Source: Nitrosopumilus maritimus SCM1
Lineage (GTDB): Archaea; Thermoproteota; Nitrososphaeria; Nitrososphaerales; Nitrosopumilaceae
NCBI RefSeq assembly: GCF_000018465.1
Contig: NC_010085.1
Span: forward strand, 510,001-542,000
Length of the DNA stretch: 32,000 bases
Direction: 5' to 3'
Shown: positions 6,887 through 32,000 of the stretch, piece by piece
How the letters are laid out: every line of letters starts with the position of its first letter
Numbering within the stretch: the first letter of the stretch is position 1
Position numbers and translations under genes: made by a program
The notes under the pieces: generated by a model
The model's input: the letters and a program-made list of their open reading frames with translations, nothing else
The model's database searches: none
Told to the model about the DNA's origin: nothing

Positions 6887-8137
6887 TTACTCTGGCTTTT
6901 GTTCTATGCTTTGTTCTGGTTCACCACTTCCACTTCTTTGCTCTTTTCTGTATTCCATCTTTAACCAAATTGGTGTAATTATTGTAGTGACTGCAACCAT
7001 GATTACAATTGTAGAGTATACTTCTGATGTTAATACTCCTGCAGTAACTCCTACTCCTGCAACAATTAATCCTACTTCTCCTCTTGAAATCATTCCAATA
7101 CCCACTCTCATTCCCTGAGCTTTGTTTTTCAAGAAGAACATTGCTGGCAATCCACAACCTAACAACTTTGTAACAATTGCAACTGCAATGATTACTCCAC
7201 TGATCATCAAAATATTCAAATCAACTGCCCGTAGGTCTACCTGCGCTCCAATAATTGCAAAGAATAACGGTGCAAAAATCAATCCAATCTTTCCGATATA
7301 ATTCTCAACCTTTTCAAACACTTTGGTAGTCGACAATGCCATTCCTACTGCAAACGCACCAACAATCGGTGACAATCCAATTGAGCCTGCAAGCGCTGCA
7401 GCACCAAAGAACGACGCTGTGGCTATTCCTTCAACACTACCCTTTGCCTTCCATAAACGTGGAGTGATGACTTTGGGAATTACTATTACTGCTACAATTA
7501 ACATAATTGCAAAGAATCCTAGTACTTGCAAAATTGTTATCATCACATCTGTGATTACTATGCTTTCAATTCCTGCATCTGAACCTGTTATTGAAATTAC
7601 AACTGACAAAACTGCAATCGCTAATATGTCATCAACTACTGCAGCACCAATAATCAATCTAGCTTCAGGTGCCTTTAGCTTACCAAATTCACTAAGTACT
7701 TGAATCGAAATTGCAATACTGGTAGCTGTGAGCGCTGTTGCAATTAACATCGATTCTAACGCTTCGAATCCAAAAAATCCAAAAATTAGAAAACCTGCAA
7801 AGAACGGGACTACCACCCCTAATGTCCCAACGGTAAACGACGCCTTTCCACCTTTCAGGAATTCTTTTGGTGTCATTTCTAATCCTGCCATAAACAAAAT
7901 TACAATTGCGCCCATTTCTCCTAGAATTTTTATCTCATCATTGATGTGCAACAACTGTTTTCCATCTATGATGAAAAACTGACCTAACGCAAATGGTCCA
8001 ACAATCATTCCTGCTAATAATTCGCCTAATACAATTGGAAGCTTTAATCTCAAGAAAAGCTCTGCCATTAATTTAGCTGCAAAAAGGAGTATGCCAATCC
8101 CGATAATTGTTTCAATGAAATGTGCATCTGCAGCCAT
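6887..8137 (-). CDS. monovalent cation:proton antiporter (CPA2 / Na+/H+ exchanger family)
   Basis: 416 aa with about 12 TM segments. The N-terminal 'LLFAAKLMAELFLRLKLPIVLGELLAGMIVGP' is typical of Kef/NapA-type exchangers. Confidence 0.88.
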   Translation of the reverse strand: MAADAHFIETIIGIGILLFAAKLMAELFLRLKLPIVLGELLAGMIVGPFALGQFFIIDGKQLLHINDEIKILGEMGAIVILFMAGLEMTPKEFLKGGKASFTVGTLGVVVPFFAGFLIFGFFGFEALESMLIATALTATSIAISIQVLSEFGKLKAPEARLIIGAAVVDDILAIAVLSVVISITGSDAGIESIVITDVMITILQVLGFFAIMLIVAVIVIPKVITPRLWKAKGSVEGIATASFFGAAALAGSIGLSPIVGAFAVGMALSTTKVFEKVENYIGKIGLIFAPLFFAIIGAQVDLRAVDLNILMISGVIIAVAIVTKLLGCGLPAMFFLKNKAQGMRVGIGMISRGEVGLIVAGVGVTAGVLTSEVYSTIVIMVAVTTIITPIWLKMEYRKEQRSGSGEPEQSIEQKPE

Positions 8138-10009: not shown

Positions 10010-10406
10010 TGTTTACGTCGATTTGTTCTGTCTAATTACTATACTGACTAAGTATTTTGTACACTTTTTGTTAGACAGAATTTAGTAATCTTTCTGTAAT
10101 AATTAGAACTTAAGACCAAAAACGGTTTGTTACTTGGTGACAGTTCTAACTATGATCTCATTTTGTAAAATAGTATTTAGCATATCCTGATGATTTGTAT
10201 GAATCATTTCTACGTGTCTTTTTTATGTAAATTGTGTTTAGTATTGTTGTACAATTGATGGGAGTCATTCATCAATCCTGTGCCAGACCATAGCGTTTTG
10301 TCAGGTCAAAAATGGCCTGACTCTTCCCTTACTTTGTTCGTAAAACTCAAAATTTTACTAATGATTCATCAGTGCCCGCTAAATATCAAAATTCCAAATT
10401 TTGTGC

Positions 10407-12080
10407 ATGAGGGGCATAGGATACATGCTTGTAATGGGCGTATTTTTCACGATTTTTCTAAATTCCGCACATGCTCAAACTGTGGGGGATCAGACAACTT
10501 TGTCAGGAGATCTACAAAACAATCCTATTGCCCAAGACATTCTTAAAAAAATTGAACAAAGTAAAAAATGGATTGCAAAAATTGAACAAAGAAATTTTGA
10601 AGATTCTCAACGACAAGCAGAATTAGAACAAAAGCGTGCTGAAATTTTACAAAGTTTGGAAGACGATTTAAGAAAATGGGAAGAACTTTGGGGTTACTAT
10701 ACATTTGATAATATACTTGAAAGAGCATTAGAAAATAGTCCTGCAAAGGACACTTCTAGCATTTATGATCATCCTCTAAAATTTACTGCTTCTAAAATTA
10801 ATGCTGGAAAAGAAGCTTTGCAAAAAGTAATCTTAGAAGGGGGAAATTCTGAACAAGCAAGAGACGCATTTGTCAAAGCTGCAAAAATAACAAGAGCTGA
10901 AATGGTGTCTGTTAATGCATTTTATAATATTTTGAACAATAATGCTTACTACAATCAACAAGTACTCTTTGAATCTGATGGTAGATTCAACTATGATTTG
11001 TCTGGGGAAGAATTGAGAAAATACTATCAAGATTTTAGAACAAATCCTGCATATTTTGAAGCAAATCCTCTTGATGAAGTTTCTTGGTCTGATCTTGGCA
11101 AAACTAATTTTGATACTGAATGTAGAACAGGACATGTTTTAGTTTACAGAACTCATGCAGATGATTATGTTTGCACTACTGAATATACTGCTGAAATGTG
11201 GGTACGACATGATATGGGAAAACTTGCTAATGGAATTAATGAAGAACGACATAATCTGCTAAATGAACAGAAATTCAACAAAGACAGAATTTTACAAAAG
11301 GCAGATAGTTTAAACTCTAAAATCAAAACCATACAAACACACTATGAAGCAGAAATCTCAGAAATACTTGCAAAATATGACTCCCTTATGACTGATATCG
11401 AACTAGACAAACGTGCTGAAGAAAAACAAATTCTTGAAAATTCTGACTCTGATTCAAAAAAGACAATCAGTCAACAAATTGCCAATATTCGAGAAAAATT
11501 TGATGAACTTGAAAAAAACACTCTTGATGAAAAAGACGACGTTTTGAAGATTCTAGCAAATCAACATATTACCTCAATAGAAGAATTTGCATCTCTCTAT
11601 GAACTTGATGATGAAATCAAAATTGAATGGAATGCTGATTCTCTGACTTTTTACCCATCTGCATATTATTTTCCACAACAATCTGAATCTAGTTTAATCG
11701 TAAAGACTAGTTCTGAAAATACTATTTCTGATTTTCTTGTTGATGACACAAGTTTCAAAAATGCATTTGGTGAAAAAATACATTCACTAAAACCAGGTCA
11801 ATTAGTTCAGATTGCTTCTGATGTTACAAATAATGATAATTTTTCAAAAAAATTTGTTTATCTAGTTGAAATTAAAGATGAACAAAATCAAATAGTTCAA
11901 CCTCTAAAGTGGATAACAGGCCAACTTGATTCAGATCAAGTCCTTAATTTGGGATTGTCTTGGATTCCACAAACTCCTGGTAATTTTTATGCAGATGTTT
12001 TTGTTGGAACTAGCTTAGACTTTGTGTCTCACACAGAAACCATTTCTATTTCTGTAACTCCACAAGATCATTTGTCCTAA
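10407..12080 (+). CDS. secreted hypothetical protein (signal peptide, coiled-coil middle, beta-rich C-terminal domain)
   Basis: N-terminus MRGIGYMLVMGVFFTIFLNSAHA|Q looks like a signal peptide. Alternative starts are TTG 10401 and ATG 10425. No family recognised. Confidence 0.7.
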   Translation: MRGIGYMLVMGVFFTIFLNSAHAQTVGDQTTLSGDLQNNPIAQDILKKIEQSKKWIAKIEQRNFEDSQRQAELEQKRAEILQSLEDDLRKWEELWGYYTFDNILERALENSPAKDTSSIYDHPLKFTASKINAGKEALQKVILEGGNSEQARDAFVKAAKITRAEMVSVNAFYNILNNNAYYNQQVLFESDGRFNYDLSGEELRKYYQDFRTNPAYFEANPLDEVSWSDLGKTNFDTECRTGHVLVYRTHADDYVCTTEYTAEMWVRHDMGKLANGINEERHNLLNEQKFNKDRILQKADSLNSKIKTIQTHYEAEISEILAKYDSLMTDIELDKRAEEKQILENSDSDSKKTISQQIANIREKFDELEKNTLDEKDDVLKILANQHITSIEEFASLYELDDEIKIEWNADSLTFYPSAYYFPQQSESSLIVKTSSENTISDFLVDDTSFKNAFGEKIHSLKPGQLVQIASDVTNNDNFSKKFVYLVEIKDEQNQIVQPLKWITGQLDSDQVLNLGLSWIPQTPGNFYADVFVGTSLDFVSHTETISISVTPQDHLS

Positions 12081-12089
12081 ACTTGATGT

Positions 12090-12437
12090 TTAGTTGTTCT
12101 TTTGCATAAAGAGACTCAGCATTGTATGGCCCTTGTCTGTAATTGTATAGATCATATTTGATCCAACTGCTTCTTTTTTGACAAAGTTGTAATCAACACA
12201 TAGGTGAAGATAGTTCAGAAATGACTTTTTCATTCTGATCTTTGATTTTGAATACAATTCTGAGAATGTCATTGGATTTCCTCTTAATTGATACAGTAAT
12301 TTCAGTAATGACAATGTACTGTAATCTCTAGTTCTTGCTTTTACTGCTCCTAGAATTTCTTCATCTCTTTTGATTATGAAATCTTCGAATTGCTCTGCCA
12401 CTTCTAGTGGTACGTATGTTAGTCTTGCTCGCATCAT
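12090..12437 (-). CDS. putative winged-helix DNA-binding regulator
   Basis: 115 aa. 'LSLLKLLYQLRGNPMTFSELYSKSKIRMKKSFLNYLHLCVDYNFVKKE...YTITDKG' has wHTH-like helix-turn-helix-wing spacing. It is divergent from the PII-like gene. Confidence 0.5.
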   Translation of the reverse strand: MMRARLTYVPLEVAEQFEDFIIKRDEEILGAVKARTRDYSTLSLLKLLYQLRGNPMTFSELYSKSKIRMKKSFLNYLHLCVDYNFVKKEAVGSNMIYTITDKGHTMLSLFMQKNN

Positions 12438-12624
12438 ACCGTATGGTACGGTACATTACTTTATTAGTCTTTAACTTGAGCTTTGTTGATCTTTCTAGCT
12501 GATTTTTTTACACTTGTATTTGACGCCTATAACATCAATTCATCATATATGATCTGAATACGATCTGCTATTATCTGTGGGAATAGCCTAATGTCATAAA
12601 TACCCCCTTTTTTGAAAATTATTT

Positions 12625-13080
12625 ATGAAAAAAATTGAGGCTGTCATTAGGAGAAAAAATTTTCCGACGATTAAATCTCATTTACATATTATTGGTAGTT
12701 ACATTATAGATAAACGAAATTTAGAAGACAGTAACATCTATGATGAATCAAAAGGTTCACGTGTAGGTTCTACTGGTCTCAAATCAATTCCTTTAGCAAA
12801 AATCGAAATGGTGGTACCTGACAAAGATGCACGAAAAGTTGTTGAAATGATTTCTACAAACTCTGGGTTATCTGCAACCCATGGTGGCAAGATCTTTGTA
12901 TCTGAAATGGAAGAAGTCGTTGACATGGAAACAAATGATGCTACACAAGATCTTGAACTTATCCTAGACGAAAAACCCTCTTCAGTACAATTACCAAAAC
13001 GTAGTAGACTTGTTCCATTACAAAAATTCACTTTGCATAAACTACAAGTAATCTATGAGGAGAACAAAGAAACTCTTTGA
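12625..13080 (+). CDS. divergent PII-like (GlnB/GlnK fold) protein with C-terminal extension; reading frame continues past an in-frame TGA to 13206
   Basis: 'MKKIEAVIR...', 'AKIEMVVPDKDARKVVEMI' and 'GGKIFVSEMEEVVDMET' align by eye to GlnB beta1, beta3-alpha2 and the B-loop/beta4. The T-loop region is not canonical. The tail 'RLVPLQKFTLHKLQVIYEENKETL*' resembles the first half of an RHH domain. Confidence 0.7.
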   Translation: MKKIEAVIRRKNFPTIKSHLHIIGSYIIDKRNLEDSNIYDESKGSRVGSTGLKSIPLAKIEMVVPDKDARKVVEMISTNSGLSATHGGKIFVSEMEEVVDMETNDATQDLELILDEKPSSVQLPKRSRLVPLQKFTLHKLQVIYEENKETL

Positions 13081-13206
13081 ACTGATTATAGAATAAAATC
13101 ATTTAGTGATTTTGTAAATCATTGTATTATGAAATACATTCCAACATTGGAAAAACAACTAAAGAATCCTACAATTGTTTACGAAAACAATTTTGGAGAT
13201 TTTTAA
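13081..13206 (+). other. in-frame stop-free extension after TGA encoding the second half of an RHH-like domain
   Basis: 41 sense codons directly in frame after TGA 13078-13080: TDYRIKSFSDFVNHCIMKYIPTLEKQLKNPTIVYENNFGDF. 'SFSDFVNHCI' resembles RHH helix 2. The only internal start (ATG 13129) falls after that helix. Confidence 0.45.
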
Positions 13207-13209
13207 TTT

Positions 13210-13308
13210 CTAGAAAATATAATCTGAAAACAACCACAATCCAACTAAAGTTAAACCTACTCCTGCCATTATCACTTTTGCAATGAAAATTTTTCTAGAA
13301 GTCTTCAT
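13210..13308 (-). CDS. micro membrane protein (32 aa)
   Basis: ATG ORF MKTSRKIFIAKVIMAGVGLTLVGLWLFSDYIF. Its ATG overlaps the stop of the upstream micro-ORF (atATGA). Confidence 0.3.
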   Translation of the reverse strand: MKTSRKIFIAKVIMAGVGLTLVGLWLFSDYIF

Positions 13309-13394
13309 ATGAAGAATAATAATATTGGTGGTATAACAATTATTCCAATGATTGCAGCAACTTTTGGATAATCCTTAGGCTTGATTGGTTGCAT
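13305..13394 (-). CDS. micro membrane protein (29 aa)
   Basis: ATG ORF MQPIKPKDYPKVAAIIGIIVIPPILLFFI. It lies 45 nt downstream of the PII gene on the same strand. Confidence 0.3.
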   Translation of the reverse strand: MQPIKPKDYPKVAAIIGIIVIPPILLFFI

Positions 13395-13439
13395 CTTTTC
13401 TCTTTTGAATAGATTGTTTTTACGAATACTCATACCAAA

Positions 13440-13772
13440 TCACATAACAGTCTCTTCGCCCTCTGTGTCAGTTGCAATATCTACTGCGCGCAAAACCTGT
13501 GAGACAAAAATCTTGCCAATTCTACCATTATCTTTGATTATCTTTACTACTTCGTCTTCTCTGGCGTCTGGAATAATAGCTGTGATGAAATATTTTTCTG
13601 TAAATTGTGGGACAAAAATTTCACTTCCTTTTGATGCGTGAATTTCTGGGGCTGGTCTCTTTCCTCTACCTCTTACTTTGGTAACTGTGAGTCCTCCTAT
13701 TCCAATCTTCTTTAATTCTTCACTTATTGCCATTACATCATTTTCGCCGAGAATAGCTTCTATTTTGAGCAT
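13440..13772 (-). CDS. PII-family nitrogen regulatory protein (GlnB/GlnK-like)
   Basis: 110 aa. 'MLKIEAIL...GGLTVTKVRGRGKRP...GKIFVSQVLRAVDIATDTEGEE' matches the PII architecture and length. It is divergent from amt. Confidence 0.8.
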   Translation of the reverse strand: MLKIEAILGENDVMAISEELKKIGIGGLTVTKVRGRGKRPAPEIHASKGSEIFVPQFTEKYFITAIIPDAREDEVVKIIKDNGRIGKIFVSQVLRAVDIATDTEGEETVM

Positions 13773-13822
13773 TTGATAATTGTAATTTCAACTTGATAAA
13801 TATAATTTCTGATTTTGTATAC

Positions 13823-13839
13823 CAAATGATTATCATTTG
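13823..13839. promoter_or_regulatory. perfect 8-1-8 palindrome (caaatgat t atcatttg) in the PII/amt divergent promoter region; candidate operator
   Basis: The central base 13831 is exactly 59 nt from the first base of both divergent start codons (13772 and 13890). A/T-rich TATA-like tracts flank it on both sides. Confidence 0.4.
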
Positions 13840-13889
13840 ACAATCAAATTAGGATATTGTTATTAATTAAAAACTAATTTTTTTGTCTA

Positions 13890-15197
13890 ATGGTACTTGA
13901 TTCTGGAGATACAGCGTGGATGCTTGTAGCTGGAAGTCTTGTATTGCTTATGATCCCTGCATTGGGTCTTTTTGAATCTGGTTTACTAAGAAAGAAAAAT
14001 GCAGCTTCAATTTTCATGCAAATCTTTTTCGGATTGGCACTTTTGAGTGTCATGTGGTTTGTATTTGGATTTAGTTTATCATTTAGTCCTTCAGAACATG
14101 GTTTAATCGGAGATATGGAATGGGTGTTCCTCAAAGGTGTACCTTCTGATGATTCATTACCATTTGCTCCAACTATTCCTGGTGTACTATTTGTAAAATT
14201 CCAATTGATGTTTGCATGTATTACGCCATTACTCCTTACAGGAACAATTGCTGAAAGAATGAAATTTAGTTCCTTTATTGTTTTCATATCTGCATGGTCT
14301 ATGTTGATCTACTATCCTCTTGTACACTGGGTATGGGGTGGCGGTTGGTTAGCCCAATTAGGTGTTGTAGACTTTGCTGGTGGTATTGTAATTCACACTA
14401 GTGTTGGTATGGCAGCTCTAGCTGCTGCAATAGTATTAGGAAAGAGACGAAATTACGGTCCTGCTATTATGATTCCTCACAGTATCCCACTCGCGGTTCT
14501 TGGTTCATCTTTGCTATGGCTTGGATGGTTCGGATTTAACGCAGGTAGTGCTCTTGCAGCATCTGGTGGTGTTGCAGGTAATACTGTAATTGTAACTCAC
14601 ATGGCTTCTTCAGTTTCAGCTTTGATTTGGGCTGGACTTTCATGGGTAAGAACAGGAAAACCATCTGTTGTTGCTACCATTAATGGTGCAATCGCAGGTC
14701 TTGCTGGAATTACTCCTGCATCAGGATTTGTCAGTGCTGAACACGCATTTGTAATTGGAATTGCTATCGGTGTAATCTCTTACTCTGGTGTAGTGTTATT
14801 CAAAGAGAAATTACACATAGATGATGCACTTGATGTTAGCTCAGTCCACGGTGTTGCAGGTATTGTGGGTTCTCTTGCAATTGGTATCTTTGCAAGTACT
14901 ATGATTAACCCTGGTGGCGTTGATGGATTACTATTTGGCAATCCTGACCAACTATGGATTCAAGCAGTAGGTGTTGCAGTTGCAGCCGCAATCGGATTTG
15001 GTGGAACATGGATACTGATGCAGATAATCAAACATCTTATGGGAATTAGGGTTAGTGCGCGTGTAGAAGATGTTGGTCTTGATATAAGTGAACATGCTGA
15101 GTCGGCATACTCTGATGAAGAAGAATTCATGCTAGATATGGATACGTACACTGATTCATTACAAGAAAAAGATGAAATCTTTAGAAAGAAAAAATAG
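13890..15197 (+). CDS. amt: ammonium transporter (Amt/MEP/Rh family)
   Basis: 435 aa with about 11 TM segments. It shows 'DSGDTAWMLVAGSLVLLMIPALGLFESGL', 'VDFAGGIVIHTSVGMAAL', 'GWFGFNAGS' and 'VHGVAGIVGSL', all hallmark Amt blocks. Confidence 0.95.
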   Translation: MVLDSGDTAWMLVAGSLVLLMIPALGLFESGLLRKKNAASIFMQIFFGLALLSVMWFVFGFSLSFSPSEHGLIGDMEWVFLKGVPSDDSLPFAPTIPGVLFVKFQLMFACITPLLLTGTIAERMKFSSFIVFISAWSMLIYYPLVHWVWGGGWLAQLGVVDFAGGIVIHTSVGMAALAAAIVLGKRRNYGPAIMIPHSIPLAVLGSSLLWLGWFGFNAGSALAASGGVAGNTVIVTHMASSVSALIWAGLSWVRTGKPSVVATINGAIAGLAGITPASGFVSAEHAFVIGIAIGVISYSGVVLFKEKLHIDDALDVSSVHGVAGIVGSLAIGIFASTMINPGGVDGLLFGNPDQLWIQAVGVAVAAAIGFGGTWILMQIIKHLMGIRVSARVEDVGLDISEHAESAYSDEEEFMLDMDTYTDSLQEKDEIFRKKK

Positions 15198-15212
15198 ATT
15201 TGGTGTATCTTC

Positions 15213-15581
15213 TTGGGAAATAATTATGACGAACTAACACAAAAAATTCTTGCTTTAGATCCTCAAGTAAGATTTGCTGGTGTTGCAAACAATAAGGGTG
15301 AACTTGTTGCTGGAGGACAAAAAGATGATGTTGAAAAATTACTTGCTGAAGATGATGTTAAAATGTCCATTCACTATGCTTTACAAAAACGAGACTTGTA
15401 TACAAACTTGGCATATAGAATAGGAAATGAGACTTCATCAATTACAGAATATGAAAAAGTCACAATGATTACTATTCCAATAAGTTCTAGTGAATTATTC
15501 TTAGTCAGTACAGAACCCCGTGCAGATTATCTGAAAATTATTGATGCAGTTCGCTCTGAACTTGGTTTATCTGGTGATTAA
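15213..15581 (+). CDS. hypothetical protein, Roadblock/LC7-like by sequence pattern
   Basis: 122 aa, starting 15 nt after the amt stop. 'VRFAGVANNKGELVAGG' and the later 'ITMITIPISSSELFLVSTEP' resemble the Roadblock alpha-beta-beta...beta-alpha pattern. The TTG start is forced: the stop is at 15195 and the next in-frame ATG is at codon 50. Confidence 0.5.
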   Translation: MGNNYDELTQKILALDPQVRFAGVANNKGELVAGGQKDDVEKLLAEDDVKMSIHYALQKRDLYTNLAYRIGNETSSITEYEKVTMITIPISSSELFLVSTEPRADYLKIIDAVRSELGLSGD

Positions 15582-15726
15582 TTTACCTCGTCGAATCACA
15601 GTTACGATGGATGATGAACTAGTAAAGAAAATCTATATTCTCCAATCAAAAGAAATTGCAAAATTCCAAAAACACATCAGTTTCTCAAACGTTCTTAATT
15701 CACAATTAAAACGTGCACTGAAATAG
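15574..15726 (+). CDS. small ribbon-helix-helix (CopG/Arc-like) DNA-binding protein
   Basis: VINLPRRITVTMDDELVKKIYILQSKEIAKFQKHISFSNVLNSQLKRALK reads as a beta-strand (RRITVTM) plus two helices. GTG 15574 overlaps the upstream stop by 8 nt. The start is uncertain (TTG 15562 or ATG 15607 are also possible). Confidence 0.5.
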   Translation: MINLPRRITVTMDDELVKKIYILQSKEIAKFQKHISFSNVLNSQLKRALK

Positions 15727-27290: not shown

Positions 27291-27367
27291 GGGATCGTGG
27301 TCTAGCTTGGTATGATTCTGCGTTTGGGACGCAGAGGTCGCGCGTTCAAATCTCGCCGATCCCACCA
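27291..27367 (+). tRNA. tRNA-Pro (anticodon UGG) with genomically encoded CCA
   Basis: Folded by hand. The 7-bp acceptor stem GGGATCG/CGATCCC is perfect. The anticodon stem is CTGCG/CGCAG with loop TT-TGG-GA (G37). The T arm is GCGCG-TTCAAAT-CTCGC with one C52:U62 mismatch. Discriminator A is followed by CCA. Confidence 0.9.
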
Positions 27368-27402
27368 TTATCTTATTATCAAATCAATTCTACTCTGATA
27401 TT

Positions 27403-27472
27403 GCCGAAGCAATGAGGAAGAGTTAGAGTAATGACTTTGATATGAAGTAAACTAATGGCTCTGAGCTCCGGC
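27403..27472 (+). ncRNA. candidate C/D-box sRNA (2'-O-methylation guide)
   Basis: An 8-bp terminal stem (gccgaagc/gctccggc, one mismatch) is followed by a 3-nt bulge and C box AUGAGGA (27412-18). D box CUGA (27461-64) abuts the 3' stem. Internal D'-like AUGA (27431-34) and C'-like AUGAAGU (27442-48) are present. Both spacers are exactly 12 nt. A T5 run at 27476-80 follows. Confidence 0.42.
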
Positions 27473-27505
27473 ATGTTTTTATCAATTCTTTGAGGTCTTG
27501 TTTTA

Positions 27506-27751
27506 TTGAAATTTGAGCGACGAGATATTATTTTGATTGCCGGTCTTTTGCTTTTTATGATTGGGCTAATTCCATTTATGAGCCCCGCTTACGCTGTAAT
27601 TATTGTAATTATCATGTATTTTGGAATCAAATTCTATGTTGCAAAGAGACGGCAATTAATGGAACAAGATGTCGGTGAAGGACTGTGCCTAGATTGTGGT
27701 GCTAAAATACATGAAAAAAAATGCCCTAATTGTGATTCTTCTAAGGAATAA
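27506..27751 (+). CDS. small membrane protein with C-terminal zinc ribbon (81 aa)
   Basis: Two TM helices (IILIAGLLLFMIGLIPF; AVIIVIIMYFGIKFYV) are followed by 'CLDCGAKIHEKKCPNC'. TTG start. Confidence 0.5.
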   Translation: MKFERRDIILIAGLLLFMIGLIPFMSPAYAVIIVIIMYFGIKFYVAKRRQLMEQDVGEGLCLDCGAKIHEKKCPNCDSSKE

Positions 27752-27874
27752 TTCCTACGTAGTGCTTAAAACGGAAAAATCTCCAAAATTTGTATGGTTT
27801 TAAGATATAGGACTTTAACAACAAACTCGGTCCGAAAAGTCAGACTTTTAACACTTTTACCATAATTCCACGTA

Positions 27875-29041
27875 ATGTCATCATTCTTGCTAAAGAAAAA
27901 ACGCCTAAAAACATGGGATGAAAAACTATCCAACAAATCCCAGAGGACAAAAGATGGTTATACTTTAGTTATCAAATCCTTTGAAAAATTCTGCAGCGAG
28001 TATTATGGAGGTAGAACAAAAGACGATATCTTTGATGAATTATCTGTTCTAAAAGATGCTGAAAAGACTCTTGCTACTGTAGATTTGATTCAAAATTGGA
28101 TTAATTGGCATTATTCTCATGGTGTAAAAACATCCGTTGTAAAGTTGTATCTTGCATGGCTAGGAAAATACTTTGATTATAGAGAGATTTCAATAACTCA
28201 AAAGATAAAGGATGAACTTGACTTTAAACGCGATCTAAAAGACGAACCCTTTGCACTTGAAATTCAACATATTCAGAATATTTTCAAATTTGCTAGTCCT
28301 AAAAAGATTGGATTCTATCTCGCACTAGTCTCTACTGGCGCAAGACCTGCTGAACTATTACAGGTAAAAAAGCGTGACATTATCACATCTACAAAAAGAC
28401 TCAAGGTATTGATTCAACCTGAAGGTGTAAAGACTCGACATGGACGTTCAGCATATCTTACAAAAGAAGCTGCACGATACTGTTTGATGAGATTACGTCA
28501 AATTAGTGATGATGATCTAGTCTGGGGTAAACATGAAGATTATAGCAAAACAGAAAAAGCAGAATCAAAGACATTTTCAAGATATTGTGATAATGCAGGC
28601 TATGTTGAACGATATCATTCTAATAATTATAGAAAAATCACCCTCTATTCTTTTAGGTCCTTTTTCTTTAGTGCTGCAGCAGACGTAAATCGTGAAGGAT
28701 ATGCACACAAAATGACTGGTCATGGGGGATATCTGTCTCAATATGACCGAATGTCTGATGAAAAGAAACTTGAATGGTTTTTGAAAGTAGAGCCATTTTT
28801 GACTATAGATGATGATGAAAGATTACAACTTGAAAATAAACAACTAAAGAAGGAAAATACAGAGAAAAAACAATTCGAAGAAGAAATCAAAAATTTAAAG
28901 AAAAGACAAGTAGAGCTTGAATATAATCAAAAAGAATACGAATCAATCAAACCTGATGTAGAGAAACTTGTTTTAAATTATTTTGAAGAACTTGGAGAAG
29001 ATTTTTTCAGAAAAGTATTTTCAAAAAATAGCATAAATTAA
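27875..29041 (+). CDS. tyrosine recombinase / phage-type integrase with C-terminal coiled-coil tail
   Basis: Catalytic contexts are present: 'STGARPAELL' (Arg I), 'YSFRSFF' (the H/Y-x-x-R box), 'GHGG' and 'YLSQYD' (candidate Tyr). There is an N-terminal SAM-like domain, and the last ~70 aa are E/K-rich. Confidence 0.88.
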   Translation: MSSFLLKKKRLKTWDEKLSNKSQRTKDGYTLVIKSFEKFCSEYYGGRTKDDIFDELSVLKDAEKTLATVDLIQNWINWHYSHGVKTSVVKLYLAWLGKYFDYREISITQKIKDELDFKRDLKDEPFALEIQHIQNIFKFASPKKIGFYLALVSTGARPAELLQVKKRDIITSTKRLKVLIQPEGVKTRHGRSAYLTKEAARYCLMRLRQISDDDLVWGKHEDYSKTEKAESKTFSRYCDNAGYVERYHSNNYRKITLYSFRSFFFSAAADVNREGYAHKMTGHGGYLSQYDRMSDEKKLEWFLKVEPFLTIDDDERLQLENKQLKKENTEKKQFEEEIKNLKKRQVELEYNQKEYESIKPDVEKLVLNYFEELGEDFFRKVFSKNSIN

Positions 29042-29060
29042 TTTATAAATTATTTTTGGA

Positions 29061-29183
29061 AATTTATAACTTATTTTTATTTATAAAAAATTATGCATAA
29101 TAAGTTAAAACAGATTATATACTTGTGCACAAACATCTGTACATAAAAATTAATTTATAACTTATTTTTATTTATAAAAAATT
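29061..29183. repeat. two perfect 32-bp direct repeats (29061-29092, 29152-29183) within an array of (a)atttataa motifs
   Basis: aatttataacttatttttatttataaaaaatt was verified base-by-base at both positions, with a 91-bp period. The palindromes ttatgcataa (29091-29100), tgtgcaca (29124-29131) and tgtaca (29138-29143) lie between the copies. Confidence 0.9.
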
Positions 29184-29452
29184 TCAAATAATTTATAAAA
29201 AATTATTTGTAAAAAATAAAACCTGATTTCTCTATTGATGTAAAAATATTCTAAAAAATTGTTTGTAGTTGCAGAAACACAGAAATTCATTTTAGAATTT
29301 TTATGCAATTTTTTTATTAGTTTGGAATATTTTTTTAGTTTTTTAGTTTGAGGCTATTGAGATTATTTTGCTCATATTGCATATTTGAATTCTAAACTTT
29401 CTGAAAATTTTTTTAGCATTTTAAAAATTAAAAACAATGTCACATTCAATTT

Positions 29453-29460
29453 TTTAAATA
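29453..29460 (+). promoter_or_regulatory. TATA-like box (tttaaata) about 27 nt upstream of ATG 29483, implying a leaderless transcript
   Basis: The sequence and spacing fit the archaeal TATA-to-TSS distance (about 25-27 nt). No Shine-Dalgarno-like sequence lies between it and the ATG. Confidence 0.35.
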
Positions 29461-29482
29461 CTAGTGCATTGCAAAAGTCTTG

Positions 29483-30115
29483 ATGAAATCTAATACCACT
29501 ACAAAGAATGATTCGATCTCAAATCAAACTGATGATTCTTGGATACAATACAAAAACAATCTTCACATACAAAAAAACAAAATTTCAAAAGAATTTCGTT
29601 GCATTACTTGTAAACTTTCATTGGGTGAAAATCAAGGCGGTGCTGGAGGTCATAGCAAATCCAAACATAAAATGACTTTGAGTGGAGAACCAATTCAAAC
29701 TAAATCTTTTCATGATTCTGATTCTGACAAAAACCCTGCCCCTTCATATATTGATGAAATTGATGAAGAACTTCTTAGACGAAGAACTGCCACACAAGAT
29801 TTTTCTGATGATACTGTTGAATCTATGACTTTGCTTGATGTCTACAAAGATGTGGCCTCAGGTGCGGCTAAAATCACCAAAGATCCAGAATTACAGTTTG
29901 AATATGGGCAATTAAAATTACGACGCATAATTCCGCCGGATTGGGATTTTCGTATGTGGATTAAAATGACAGTTGATTTGTTTAATAGAATTCATAAAAT
30001 AAATATACAATTCACCCAAAACCTTGATGAACTCAGCCCTGAACAATTAGAATGGCATAAGTTAGTTTATCAAGAAAATTTGGAATGGGAATATGAACAA
30101 GAACCCACTTCGTAA
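29483..30115 (+). CDS. orphan hypothetical protein with N-terminal C2H2-like zinc knuckle and acidic C-terminus
   Basis: 'FRCITCKLSLGENQGGAGGHSKSKH' has the C-x2-C-x13-H-x4-H pattern. The C-terminal third is acidic and Trp-rich (EQLEWHKLVYQENLEWEYEQE). ATG 29483, with TTG 29480 adjacent. Confidence 0.55.
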   Translation: MKSNTTTKNDSISNQTDDSWIQYKNNLHIQKNKISKEFRCITCKLSLGENQGGAGGHSKSKHKMTLSGEPIQTKSFHDSDSDKNPAPSYIDEIDEELLRRRTATQDFSDDTVESMTLLDVYKDVASGAAKITKDPELQFEYGQLKLRRIIPPDWDFRMWIKMTVDLFNRIHKINIQFTQNLDELSPEQLEWHKLVYQENLEWEYEQEPTS

Positions 30116-30146
30116 TTTTTACAATTACTGATTTTATGAAAGTAGC

Positions 30147-31508
30147 CTAAACTTTGACTCTGATTTTGCCTGTCAAAAGTTTCTGCATTAGTCCTTTTTT
30201 GAGAGATTCTAGAGATTTCTTTTTTAATTCAAGATTTGATATGTTAGAATCAACATCAGAAAGTACTGAAATGATTTTTTCTTGTTCTTCTATTGAAGAT
30301 ATGTATGGAATTAACAGATTTTGTTGATTTGTTATTCCTATGTAATCTCGTGTAGATTGTTTTGCTAACGATTTTAGTTGTTTTTGAAAATCAAAACTTT
30401 GAAAAATATAATATAGAAATTTAGGAATAATTTTACTGGATAATCGATAGTAAGTTGTTTGAGGTGAAAGAATAATTCTATCAAATTTATTTCCAACAAC
30501 TGCCACATTTCCAACACTTCCTTTATGAGACAGTAAAACATCTTTTTGTTTGGCAAATCCGATTCTTAGTATTTTTAGAAATTTTTCAGGTAGGAATTTA
30601 CATAAATCATAGTTAATGTTATCGTTCATCAAACAATCTGCTGTAACAAACGGAATTCCTTTTTGAATAAAATCTAAAGATTTAGGATGTAATTCTCCAT
30701 GATTTCCATCTTGAATTTCTAGAATTCTCTTTTCATCAACTAATTTTTTGATTTTCACATATTCCCAAGAATCAGGAATTTCAAAATAATTTCCAAATCT
30801 GTCGAATACTTTCTTAAATTTCTTATGTTTGATTCCTTTTGTTAGGAGTTGCTGTAGTAAGCCAATCTTGAGATGTTTTGTTTGATCTATGATTTTCTCA
30901 TATGAATAGATTAGATTATCAACATTAGACAATATGGAAAGAATTTTTTGTTGTTCAGAAATTTTTGGAGTTTTGATTAACAGATTTTTGATAATTCCGG
31001 TATTCAATCCTCCCATAACCAACCCCCTTGATTCTTTAATTATCTGACGATAAACAAAATTTGATTTCAAAAAATAATACAAGAACTTAGGAAGAAGTTT
31101 CTCGTGATCTAGAGAAATTTTTAAAAGATGGGATGAAATAATTGCTCTTCCTATATCTTCAGGGACAATTGCTGTTTTCCCTAATGTTCCCATCATTGTA
31201 ATTAGAACATCGTTTGGTTTTACAGTAAATCCTTTTAGTTTCTCATATTTTTCTTCAGTAATGAATTTTTGATATTTCCAAGTAAACTTATCATTCACAA
31301 TATTTTCAATCCAAAGTGTTTTAATTTTTCCAGAATTCAATAATTCATGAGTCTTTAAACTACTTCCAAAAGGTCCCATCCGAATTGATGATTTTTCATT
31401 TTTTGGAGTCAATTTGTCCAAAATTACATAATTCCAATCTTCAGGAATTTCTTCGTATTTTCCAAAAAGTGACTTTACTAGTTTGTATCCTGGTTTTACT
31501 TTTGCCAA
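30147..31508 (-). CDS. hsdS: type I restriction-modification specificity subunit
   Basis: Two target-recognition halves each open with 'IPEDWNYV...'/'IPDSWEYV...'. The conserved central region ('LKIGLLQQLLTKGI') and C-terminal region ('LKKGLMQKLLTGKIRV') are typical of HsdS. Confidence 0.9.
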   Translation of the reverse strand: MAKVKPGYKLVKSLFGKYEEIPEDWNYVILDKLTPKNEKSSIRMGPFGSSLKTHELLNSGKIKTLWIENIVNDKFTWKYQKFITEEKYEKLKGFTVKPNDVLITMMGTLGKTAIVPEDIGRAIISSHLLKISLDHEKLLPKFLYYFLKSNFVYRQIIKESRGLVMGGLNTGIIKNLLIKTPKISEQQKILSILSNVDNLIYSYEKIIDQTKHLKIGLLQQLLTKGIKHKKFKKVFDRFGNYFEIPDSWEYVKIKKLVDEKRILEIQDGNHGELHPKSLDFIQKGIPFVTADCLMNDNINYDLCKFLPEKFLKILRIGFAKQKDVLLSHKGSVGNVAVVGNKFDRIILSPQTTYYRLSSKIIPKFLYYIFQSFDFQKQLKSLAKQSTRDYIGITNQQNLLIPYISSIEEQEKIISVLSDVDSNISNLELKKKSLESLKKGLMQKLLTGKIRVKV

Positions 31509-31509
31509 T

Positions 31510-32000
31510 CTAGACCTTGAATCCTAATTCCTTTAGATCTTGTTTGACTTTTAGTTCAAGCTCGTCTCTTTCCTTGTCCAGTTTCTTGAGTTCATCTATT
31601 GTTGCCTGAATGTCTATGATTTTTTCTTCTTCTGAAATATCCACATATCTAGGAACGTTGAGGTTGAACTCATTTTCTCTGATTTCATCGAGTTCTGCAA
31701 CATGACAATACTTATCCTCATCTTTGAATGCCTTGAATGCCTTAACAATATGTTCGATGTCTTTGTCTCTTAACTTGTTTCTTACTTTTCCTTCTTGAAA
31801 TTCATTAGCTGCATAAATGAACAAAATTTTGTTTTTTCTTTCCTTTGGTTTGTTTTTGTTTAAGATTAAGACACATGCTGGAATTCCTGTTCCATAGAAT
31901 AATGCAACAGGTAATGCAATTATTGCCTCTATCATATCTCCTTGCAAGTTTTCATCCTTGTTTCCTGCAATCATATTTTCTCTGATTTTTTGCTCAGAAC
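31510..32000 (-). CDS. hsdM: type I restriction-modification DNA methyltransferase subunit, C-terminal part (N-terminus beyond the window)
   Basis: 'AIIALPVALFYGTGIPACVLILNKNK' and 'NEFNLNVPRYVD' are typical HsdM C-terminal blocks. The frame stays open upstream of Met 31974 to the window edge. Its stop lies 1 nt before the hsdS start. Confidence 0.88.
   Translation of the reverse strand, partial: SEQKIRENMIAGNKDENLQGDMIEAIIALPVALFYGTGIPACVLILNKNKPKERKNKILFIYAANEFQEGKVRNKLRDKDIEHIVKAFKAFKDEDKYCHVAELDEIRENEFNLNVPRYVDISEEEKIIDIQATIDELKKLDKERDELELKVKQDLKELGFKV

Follow-up and report, generated by a model that had tools for sequence, protein, structure and literature searches.

A divergent PII gene and a putative PII-type regulator, interrupted by a stop codon in the reference sequence, beside the low-affinity ammonium transporter Amt1 of Nitrosopumilus maritimus

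Ammonia is both the fuel and the nitrogen source of ammonia-oxidising archaea, which are among the most abundant organisms of the ocean. For their ammonium uptake, no transcription factor is named in the searchable literature. What kind of control, then, could be exerted by the genes that surround the ammonium transporter Amt1 of Nitrosopumilus maritimus SCM1? The window analysed here, the whole stretch of 32,000 nucleotides (nt), corresponds to genome positions 510001-542000, and all positions below are window positions. Eight open reading frames (ORFs), designated A to H, lie around the transporter gene. The core of this locus is formed by B, E, D, C and Amt1 (ORF F), while G is tightly linked yet separable, and H and A are accessories. 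We propose that the locus is the nitrogen-control island of the low-affinity transporter Amt1 in Nitrosopumilaceae, a proposal that we regard as evenly balanced, function and mechanism being inferred for the locus as a whole. A bolder and more tentative proposal is that B is the founding member of a group of transcription factors, restricted to Nitrososphaerota, that carry a PII-type domain and a DNA-binding domain directly joined in one chain, and that B, a GlnK with an altered pocket, two micro membrane proteins and a tandem TGATnATCA operator would form a circuit shutting off the low-affinity transporter as ammonia falls, hidden in the reference by a stop codon.

Amt1 (Nmar_0588; 13890-15197, plus strand; 435 amino acids, aa) matches both Pfam Ammonium_transp (PF00909, 380 bits) and TIGR00836 (414 bits) above the cut-offs. 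Position 14425 of the window, which is genome position 524425, lies in Nmar_0588 according to Table S5 of Qin et al. 2020 (PMC7490402). In the literature Amt1 is the low-affinity ammonium transporter, and its expression is reported to be depressed at low ammonia or after short starvation (PMC7490402). From a shared region of 117 bp (13773-13889), E (Nmar_0587, ABX12483; 13440-13772, minus strand), which codes for a PII protein of 110 aa, is transcribed divergently from amt1. E is followed on the same strand by D (WP_274377695; 13305-13433; 42 aa) and by C (13210-13308; 32 aa), the last gene of the E-D-C operon; the stop of E lies 6 nt ahead of D, and 4 nt are shared by D and C. B (Nmar_0586) is convergent on this operon, and G starts 15 nt downstream from amt1. 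All ORFs, coordinates and spacings given in an initial annotation of this DNA agreed with our ORF check of the window. That annotation had called the neighbourhood of amt non-textbook, and indeed the bacterial and other archaeal loci recovered in a genome scan with Amt1 have the PII gene directly 3' of amt. It had also reported two PII-like genes, and both E and B exceed the Pfam P-II threshold (PF00543, gathering score 25).

The arrangement had further been put forward as a candidate for a module new to the literature, which holds in part. A report of 2016 (PMC4836417) had already placed PII genes beside the low-affinity Amt in group 1.1a ammonia oxidisers, and reviews class these PII proteins as GlnK/GlnB-type (PMC10432482). 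The fusion in B, the micro-proteins and the link with DUF6659, the Pfam class of G, do appear to be new: no description of a PII-DNA-binding fusion, of DUF6659 or of the micro-proteins was found in the searchable literature, several key papers lying outside that search, and nothing relevant was returned by literature searches for PII with ribbon-helix-helix (RHH), for a DNA-binding domain fused to PII in Thaumarchaeota, or for DUF6659.

B is annotated at 12625-13080 (plus strand) as a protein of 151 aa, an exact match to ABX12482.1, and was taken in the initial annotation for a 151-aa PII protein with a long tail. The full frame extends from 12625 to 13206, since it runs 41 codons beyond the TGA at 13078-13080, and its read-through translation is identical residue for residue with the protein P0121, Arg152 replacing the stop. 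The homologues of B have about 193 aa, and all of those listed (more than 100) carry Arg at codon 152. Four other assemblies of the same strain (Logan assemblies L081-L084, each from a run of its own) share 99.96-99.97% identity with the window, and in every one of them position 13078 is C, so that the codon reads CGA (Arg152). One of them, L082, is without the Amt1 change A179V, indicating a separate, early-branching lineage; because this early-branching assembly also reads C, the ancestral state is most simply CGA. B is thus a stop-interrupted protein of 193 aa. The T of the reference at 13078, which is not among the SCM1 mutations in Table S5 (PMC7490402), can be put down either to an error of base calling or to a mutation private to the culture that was sequenced. 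Programmed read-through or selenocysteine insertion at the TGA was rejected, since the presence of CGA in other assemblies of the strain makes recoding unnecessary. In the C-terminal domain the stop comes immediately behind the first of the two predicted helices, and a product of 151 aa would miss the second.

In its N-terminal part B matches Pfam P-II with 41.5 bits (residues 44-103) and archaeal GlnB/GlnK proteins of the PDB over residues 1-109 (E = 4e-8). The AlphaFold model of B (pLDDT 69 overall) consists of a PII fold (strand-helix-strand-strand-helix-strand), in which the T-loop is disordered, and of two C-terminal helices that follow a likewise disordered linker. Both PII domains of the locus were aligned with E. 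coli GlnB and Archaeoglobus GlnB-2. In B the GxTVT region reads SYIIDKRNLED, Asp and Glu occupy the positions of Arg101 and Arg103, and GGKIF is kept in close relatives only; the canonical nucleotide motifs GxTVTxVxGxG, Arg101 and Arg103 were not found in the alignment with E. coli GlnB. Judged from its sequence, B has a degenerate PII domain at its N-terminus.

The C-terminal domain of B (12997-13203, plus strand; residues 125-193), which is split by the stop codon, is composed of a KRSR arm, a putative strand LVPLQK and two helices. Among 116 homologues the segment from residue 123 on is among the most conserved of the protein, and K125-R126-S127-R128 is invariant. The alignment shows the basic arm, then x-V-x-L-Q-K, a helix with Y-E-x-N-K-E-x-L, a short loop and a helix opening with S-F-S-D-F-V-N, and this conserved layout resembles, by alignment, that of an RHH domain. 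The strand pattern V8/L10 is conserved along with the KRSR arm, in a region where the single-chain AlphaFold model predicts no strand; the two helices of the model, residues 132-151 and 160-180, have pLDDT 70-81. When residues 115-193 were searched exhaustively with HMMER against 1.84 billion representative proteins, 18 clusters only were recovered. Besides fragments, these comprise fusions with PII (177-216 aa), three proteins in which the domain stands by itself (57-69 aa) and two false positives rich in repeats. The domain was found in Nitrososphaerota only. Several of the 193-aa homologues carry the NCBI label 'transcriptional regulator'. Among the standalone homologues (L171-L174, 57-69 aa), two lie divergent to portal or capsid genes on provirus-like Nitrososphaerota contigs, and small DNA-binding regulators usually sit beside capsid or portal operons. 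As a separate observation, L171-L174 suggest that this type of domain is shared between viruses and the cellular PII fusion. Finally, this domain gave a weak in-register alignment with a profile of H, the small ORF at the end of the locus (E = 0.006, probability 6%). The RHH tail that had been ascribed to B is without a family-level match, yet its layout of a basic arm and two helices is conserved. DNA binding of the RHH type by this domain is probable, although not established.

E, the second PII protein, matches Pfam P-II over its full length (55.3 bits, residues 1-102) and GlnB/GlnK proteins of the PDB (E = 1e-8). The E family keeps GG(L/I)TV, RGRGK and a full-length T-loop with PEIHASKGxE conserved across genera; Lys48 stands at the position of Arg47, and Lys60 corresponds to GlnB Lys58. 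The B-loop is 5 residues shorter than usual (GRIGKIF vs TGxxGDGKIF), Gln39, Arg101 and Arg103 are replaced by Arg39, Asp98 and Ala100, and Tyr51 is absent. The canonical ATP/2-oxoglutarate pocket was accordingly not recovered in the alignment with E. coli GlnB, and E is best described as a GlnK-like protein with an altered nucleotide pocket.

The two micro-ORFs downstream of E belong to no protein family. In related loci 32 (C) and 28 (D) distinct intact variants with conserved motifs were detected, and C and D are therefore real, conserved genes for small membrane proteins, as the initial annotation had held in describing the divergent PII gene as followed by two overlapping micro-membrane ORFs. 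C is a single-pass protein with the motif MK.SKI.IAKL.LA..GMTLVGL.LF and one conserved membrane span. D is a tail-anchored protein, the cytoplasmic part of which holds a conserved basic motif, RKxKLFxREKMQP..KDY, ahead of a hydrophobic tail that varies. D is called as a gene in L082, L085 and L086. The exact sequences of C and H are absent from the protein collection, and both therefore appear to be unannotated.

Within the region shared by E and amt1, two TATA-like boxes are located each about 24-26 nt from its own ATG, suggesting leaderless transcripts. Between these divergent boxes lie tandem palindromes, TGATTATCA-tt-TGACAATCA (13827-13846, no strand assigned); their conservation reaches from Nitrosopumilus as far as Nitrosotenuis-like genomes, beyond which remnants persist. 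On the evidence of conservation alone, this tandem palindrome may be regarded as a candidate operator. A TGATAAT element is present directly upstream of the TATA box of B in orthologues, and the window reads TGGGAATAG at this place.

The conservation of the arrangement was followed in two collections, a species-level genome scan seeded with Amt1 and a metagenome scan seeded with DUF6659, which yielded 80 loci, all of them close relatives with G 65-93% identical. In every ammonia-oxidiser locus with enough flanking sequence (L001-L007, L009) the E-type PII gene is adjacent to amt and divergent from it, and nowhere in these loci is it the downstream, co-transcribed partner. Of the 39 metagenome loci that extend 3 kb or more upstream, 32 keep all six genes in the order B C D E F G. 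G directly follows Amt in 66 of 76 loci, at a median distance of 21 nt, and the spacing between amt1 and G is 15-30 nt, or an overlap, in nearly all loci (4 nt of overlap in L087). B adjoins E in Nitrosopumilus and in Nitrosotenuis-like genomes; in the latter, B and E are convergent and 3 nt apart. In L002 a DUF6659 gene (42% identical) is located upstream of B. The arrangement is thus conserved in related genomes and no accident of the SCM1 genome. Since the metagenome loci are close relatives, these counts overstate the independent support. More telling is the distant PII-RHH protein P0254 (177 aa; C-terminal domain 48% identical), which is followed by a convergent 112-aa PII gene and then by two Amt genes, the neighbours being otherwise different from those of the Nitrosopumilus cluster; the core trio of PII-RHH, convergent PII and Amt is thus found again in a distant lineage.

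Natural deletions provide a second view of the same linkage. In L109 and L138 amt1 is lost, and residues 1-98 or 1-111 of B are fused to the last 46 residues of Amt. L140 is without Amt and without the first 33 residues of E, and in L136 the whole block from B to F is missing. The decay of B and E along with amt1 supports a functional tie among the three. In all four variants G is full-length, indicating that G is independent of amt1. These deletions fit published losses: deep-ocean and sponge-associated lineages are without amt1, the sponge-associated ones also having fewer PII genes (PMC7490402, PMC11812461), and amt1 was lost together with extra PII copies in sponge symbionts (PMC11812461).

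Two further observations were made on these loci. In L009 (3738-4314; genome bin of Nitrosopumilus sp. PfA), B is split over two frames near codon 25, by a frameshift or an assembly error. In other lineages, dCache_1-HAMP sensor genes (guanylate cyclase, histidine kinase, chemoreceptor) are found repeatedly beside the Amt1/PII cluster or beside a relative of the B domain, at L087 5432-7180, L168 2512-4662 and L170 4617-6740.

How could these components act together? E would bind the cytoplasmic face of Amt1 via its T-loop in the fashion of GlnK, Lys48 replacing Arg47 of GlnK. The ligand signal read by E would probably be different or altered, because the B-loop is shortened and the C-terminal arginines are missing. 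D and C would tether or modulate E at the membrane. B would be a one-component transcription factor, the PII-like domain of which trimerises and acts as a sensor or as a partner for E, while its RHH-like domains would pair between trimers and bind the palindromes of the E/amt1 promoter; B would perhaps also bind the TGATAAT site upstream of its own TATA box. The outcome of this scheme would be the published fall of amt1 transcription on ammonia exhaustion. G and the occasional H would be co-transcribed accessories, with a function not tied to Amt1.

G (15213-15581, plus strand; 122 aa; TTG start) matches Pfam DUF6659 with 31 bits (gathering score 27) and is 100% identical to the NCBI N. maritimus protein, with the UniRef name 'Roadblock/LAMTOR2 domain-containing'. 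Its AlphaFold model (pLDDT 72, pTM 0.70) shows the order helix-strand-strand-helix-strands-helix, the central helix (residues 43-64) being below pLDDT 50. When this model was compared with the PDB by Foldseek, the best matches were Roadblock/LC7, MglB and LAMTOR proteins (E = 8e-5 to 1e-3, TM 0.5-0.63), with sequence identities of 7-16%; profilins are also in the list. Pfam Robl_LC7 was not matched, DUF6659 alone being reported at E up to 1. The Roadblock/LC7-like fold postulated in the initial annotation is therefore upheld by model and structure comparison. Its hint that the Roadblock gene may be a GTPase or platform partner around Amt is not: no GTPase domain was detected in any ORF of the window or in the listed neighbours of L081-L087, and G survives the loss of amt1 and PII. 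Because G is intact without amt1 and PII genes and the window holds no GTPase, a role of G as partner of Amt1 is doubtful.

H overlaps the end of G (longest ORF 15541-15726, 61 aa; from the GTG start 15574-15726, about 50 aa; plus strand). Its likeliest start, the GTG at 15574, shares nucleotides with the stop codon of G (GTGATTAA). A homology search found 2 called homologues in 5.8 billion proteins, and tblastn (cut-off 1e-3) detected H in about 13 of 75 loci, each time where G stops. Divergent copies that are intact keep KR(I/V)T(I/V)V.D(D/E)...KK(I/L)R..Q.K......VSFSS, and the copies in L086, L089 and L092 have internal stops. H of the window has no Pfam match; the homologue P0243 matches RHH_1 with E = 0.054 and 13.9 bits, below the threshold of 20.5. 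In hhalign, the H profile aligned in register with the N-terminus of NikR (probability 75%, E = 2.5e-5) and with that of CopG (E = 0.012), and three control proteins gave nothing. H may thus be a small RHH protein, going by the profile alignments with NikR and CopG, with Pfam remaining below threshold.

At the opposite end of the locus, A (Nmar_0585, ABX12481; 12090-12437, minus strand; 115 aa) is separated from B by the intergenic region 12438-12624. It has five sub-threshold Pfam matches, four of them to winged-helix families (including DUF7347, HTH_45 and DUF6293_C; E = 0.006-0.13), and its best PDB matches, AspA and NmtR, are not significant. The UniRef orthologue name is 'ArnR1-like winged helix-turn-helix'. 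A is 98% identical across Nitrosopumilus species and lies beside B in 8 of 32 metagenome loci. A is a probable winged-helix regulator, as it had been called, by its orthologue name and the sub-threshold Pfam matches, and it does not belong to the core. Where up to three DNA-binding modules had been counted around the one transporter, core and accessory genes were mixed, A and H being patchy, and the sole core module, the C-terminus of B, is halved by the stop in this sequence. Next to A, the palindrome ACCGTAtggTACGGT (12438-12452, no strand assigned) abuts its ATG and is a candidate autoregulatory site in the orthologue alignment; it was also detected as a stem in a sigma-70 promoter/terminator scan, which is uninformative for an archaeon. 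Within 12438-12535, ACCGTAtggTACGGT is followed by about 80 bp that are near-invariant among Nitrosopumilus species, and the B-proximal half of the intergenic region is variable. Either an operator acting on A or a small RNA may lie in this conserved block; an Rfam scan of the window returned tRNA-Pro only, with no match for the block. Upstream of A, at 10401-12080, an ORF of 559 aa, hydrophobic at its N-terminus and matching no family, is shared with related Nitrosopumilus genomes at 64-75% identity.

Several observations weigh against the proposed control by B. For its C-terminal domain no sequence or profile match was found in Pfam (E up to 10), NCBIfam or the PDB, comparison of the B model with viral structures by Foldseek yielded no match at E <= 0.001 and nothing that could be interpreted, and hhalign against Arc, Mnt, CopG, NikR and MetJ was not significant (Arc, E = 0.21). 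The model of B is moderately confident (pLDDT 69) and contains no strand in this domain. Both PII domains are without the canonical ATP and 2-oxoglutarate residues. As to the operator, TGATNATCA is not enriched in the 32-kb window, with 3 matches against 2.1 expected. Nearly all of the synteny loci come from one family, so that shared ancestry inflates the counts, and G is kept intact without amt1. If the C-terminal domain of B were instead a module for protein interaction or oligomerisation, B would be a PII-type protein regulator docking on Amt1, E or an enzyme; known PII proteins work by protein-protein contact, in line with the missing RHH match by sequence and the strandless model. We consider this unlikely in view of the invariant KRSR arm, after which come a strand pattern of alternating hydrophobic residues and two helices, of the standalone homologues divergent to capsid/portal operons, the usual place of small DNA-binding regulators, and of the in-register likeness to H, which itself matches RHH N-termini. 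The standing of the stop codon in B is a separate matter. A genuine mutation in the culture behind the reference, leaving a lineage with a defective regulator, is conceivable, with odds somewhat against it: the locus gathers laboratory mutations (three of the 11 non-synonymous changes of Table S5 fall at 8060, 9513 and 14425; PMC7490402), the L082 lineage bears two non-synonymous changes in E, and the T>C difference is absent from Table S5 (PMC7490402). Against it, four independent assemblies, early-branched L082 included, read C, making C most simply the ancestral base, and a one-base error of the reference accounts for the data equally well.

For the locus as a whole, an opposing view is that E and Amt1 alone are linked, as a divergent GlnK-Amt pair, and that B, C, D, G, H and A are neighbours by shared ancestry with no common function. 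The close relationship of the 80 metagenome loci, the persistence of G after loss of amt1, B and E, the patchiness of A and H, and the absence of canonical ligand residues from the PII domain of B are what such a view would predict. It explains less well why B, a convergent PII gene and Amt recur in a distant lineage with entirely different flanks, and in Nitrosotenuis-like genomes, why E and D are 6 nt apart and D and C share 4 nt, why amt1 and G are closely spaced or overlapping in nearly all loci, and why a DUF6659 gene is found again near B in L002, at another position. We therefore judge the linkage of E and Amt1 alone to be rather unlikely as a full account. Regarding G, a profilin-like protein, or another small alpha/beta protein of unrelated role, would agree with the profilins among the Foldseek matches at similar E-values, with the poorly modelled central helix (pLDDT <50 at residues 43-64), with DUF6659 as the sole Pfam result and with the lack of a GTPase gene nearby. 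Most of the top matches, the best included, are nevertheless Roadblock/LC7, MglB or LAMTOR proteins, the order of secondary structures agrees with the Roadblock fold, and the UniRef name points independently to Roadblock/LAMTOR2, so that an identity other than a Roadblock-type platform is improbable. The reading retained here is that of a proposed Amt1 control locus with B, E, D, C and Amt1 as its core.

Among known systems, the closest analogue of this locus in context is amtB-glnK, and that of B in design is NikR. As in amtB-glnK of E. coli and amt-glnB/glnK of methanogens and Archaeoglobus, Amt stands beside a PII protein of about 110 aa that has a full T-loop, is basic at the Arg47 site and keeps an equivalent of Lys58, and the PII protein is the presumed plug of the transporter. 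In contrast to that system, the PII gene here is divergent instead of downstream and co-transcribed, its product has a shorter B-loop, and it shares its operon with two tiny membrane proteins; moreover, amt1 expression goes down, not up, under ammonia shortage (PMC7490402). Like NikR, B would join an RHH-type module to a beta-alpha-beta-beta-alpha-beta sensor domain that also drives oligomerisation. The order of domains is, however, reversed in B, a trimer-forming PII sensor takes the place of the ACT-like domain of NikR, DNA binding by B is putative, and no sequence relation between the B domain and NikR was detected by hhalign. In NrpR, GlnR, NtcA-PipX and AmtR, transcriptional control of ammonium uptake or assimilation is tied to the PII signal, with PII being a separate protein or not involved in DNA binding. 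In B, by contrast, a PII-like domain and a putative DNA-binding domain form one chain. G shares its fold, by structure comparison, with the Roadblock/LC7 proteins MglB, LAMTOR2 and Asgard Roadblock, from which it differs in having no small GTPase gene nearby, 7-16% identity, and the Pfam class DUF6659.

The locus is also a site of changes within the laboratory strain. Three SCM1 culture mutations, at 8060, 9513 and 14425 (genome 518060, 519513 and 524425), affect Nmar_0581, Nmar_0583 and Amt1 (A179V) within 6.4 kb; Table S5 (PMC7490402) contains 20 mutations in 1.65 Mb, of which 11 are non-synonymous, and about 0.08 would be expected per such 6.4-kb interval. L081 has all three, and L083, which spans 14425 alone of these positions, has that one. 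L082 (run ERR14380316) carries T29I (GLTVT motif) and E51G (T-loop) in E, at 13621 and 13687, the sole differences in 6.8 kb besides 13078. These changes hint that separate SCM1 lineages altered either Amt1 or its PII partner E. Elsewhere in the window, 27291-31974 contains tRNA-Pro (27291-27367), a phage-type integrase (27875-29041) and a low-GC stretch with type I restriction-modification genes (26-28% GC at 29001-31000), and looks like an integrated element at a tRNA.

For work on N. maritimus, the stop codon in B is of direct consequence: the RefSeq protein WP_012214969 (151 aa) is the truncated form, and any cloning or modelling of Nmar_0586 from the reference loses half of the C-terminal domain. 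C and D are examples of conserved micro-proteins that are often missed by gene callers. For the biology of ammonia-oxidising archaea, the locus supplies a candidate regulator in the full-length Nmar_0586, a candidate operator at 13827-13846, a candidate Amt-binding PII protein with an unusual pocket, and two micro-proteins.

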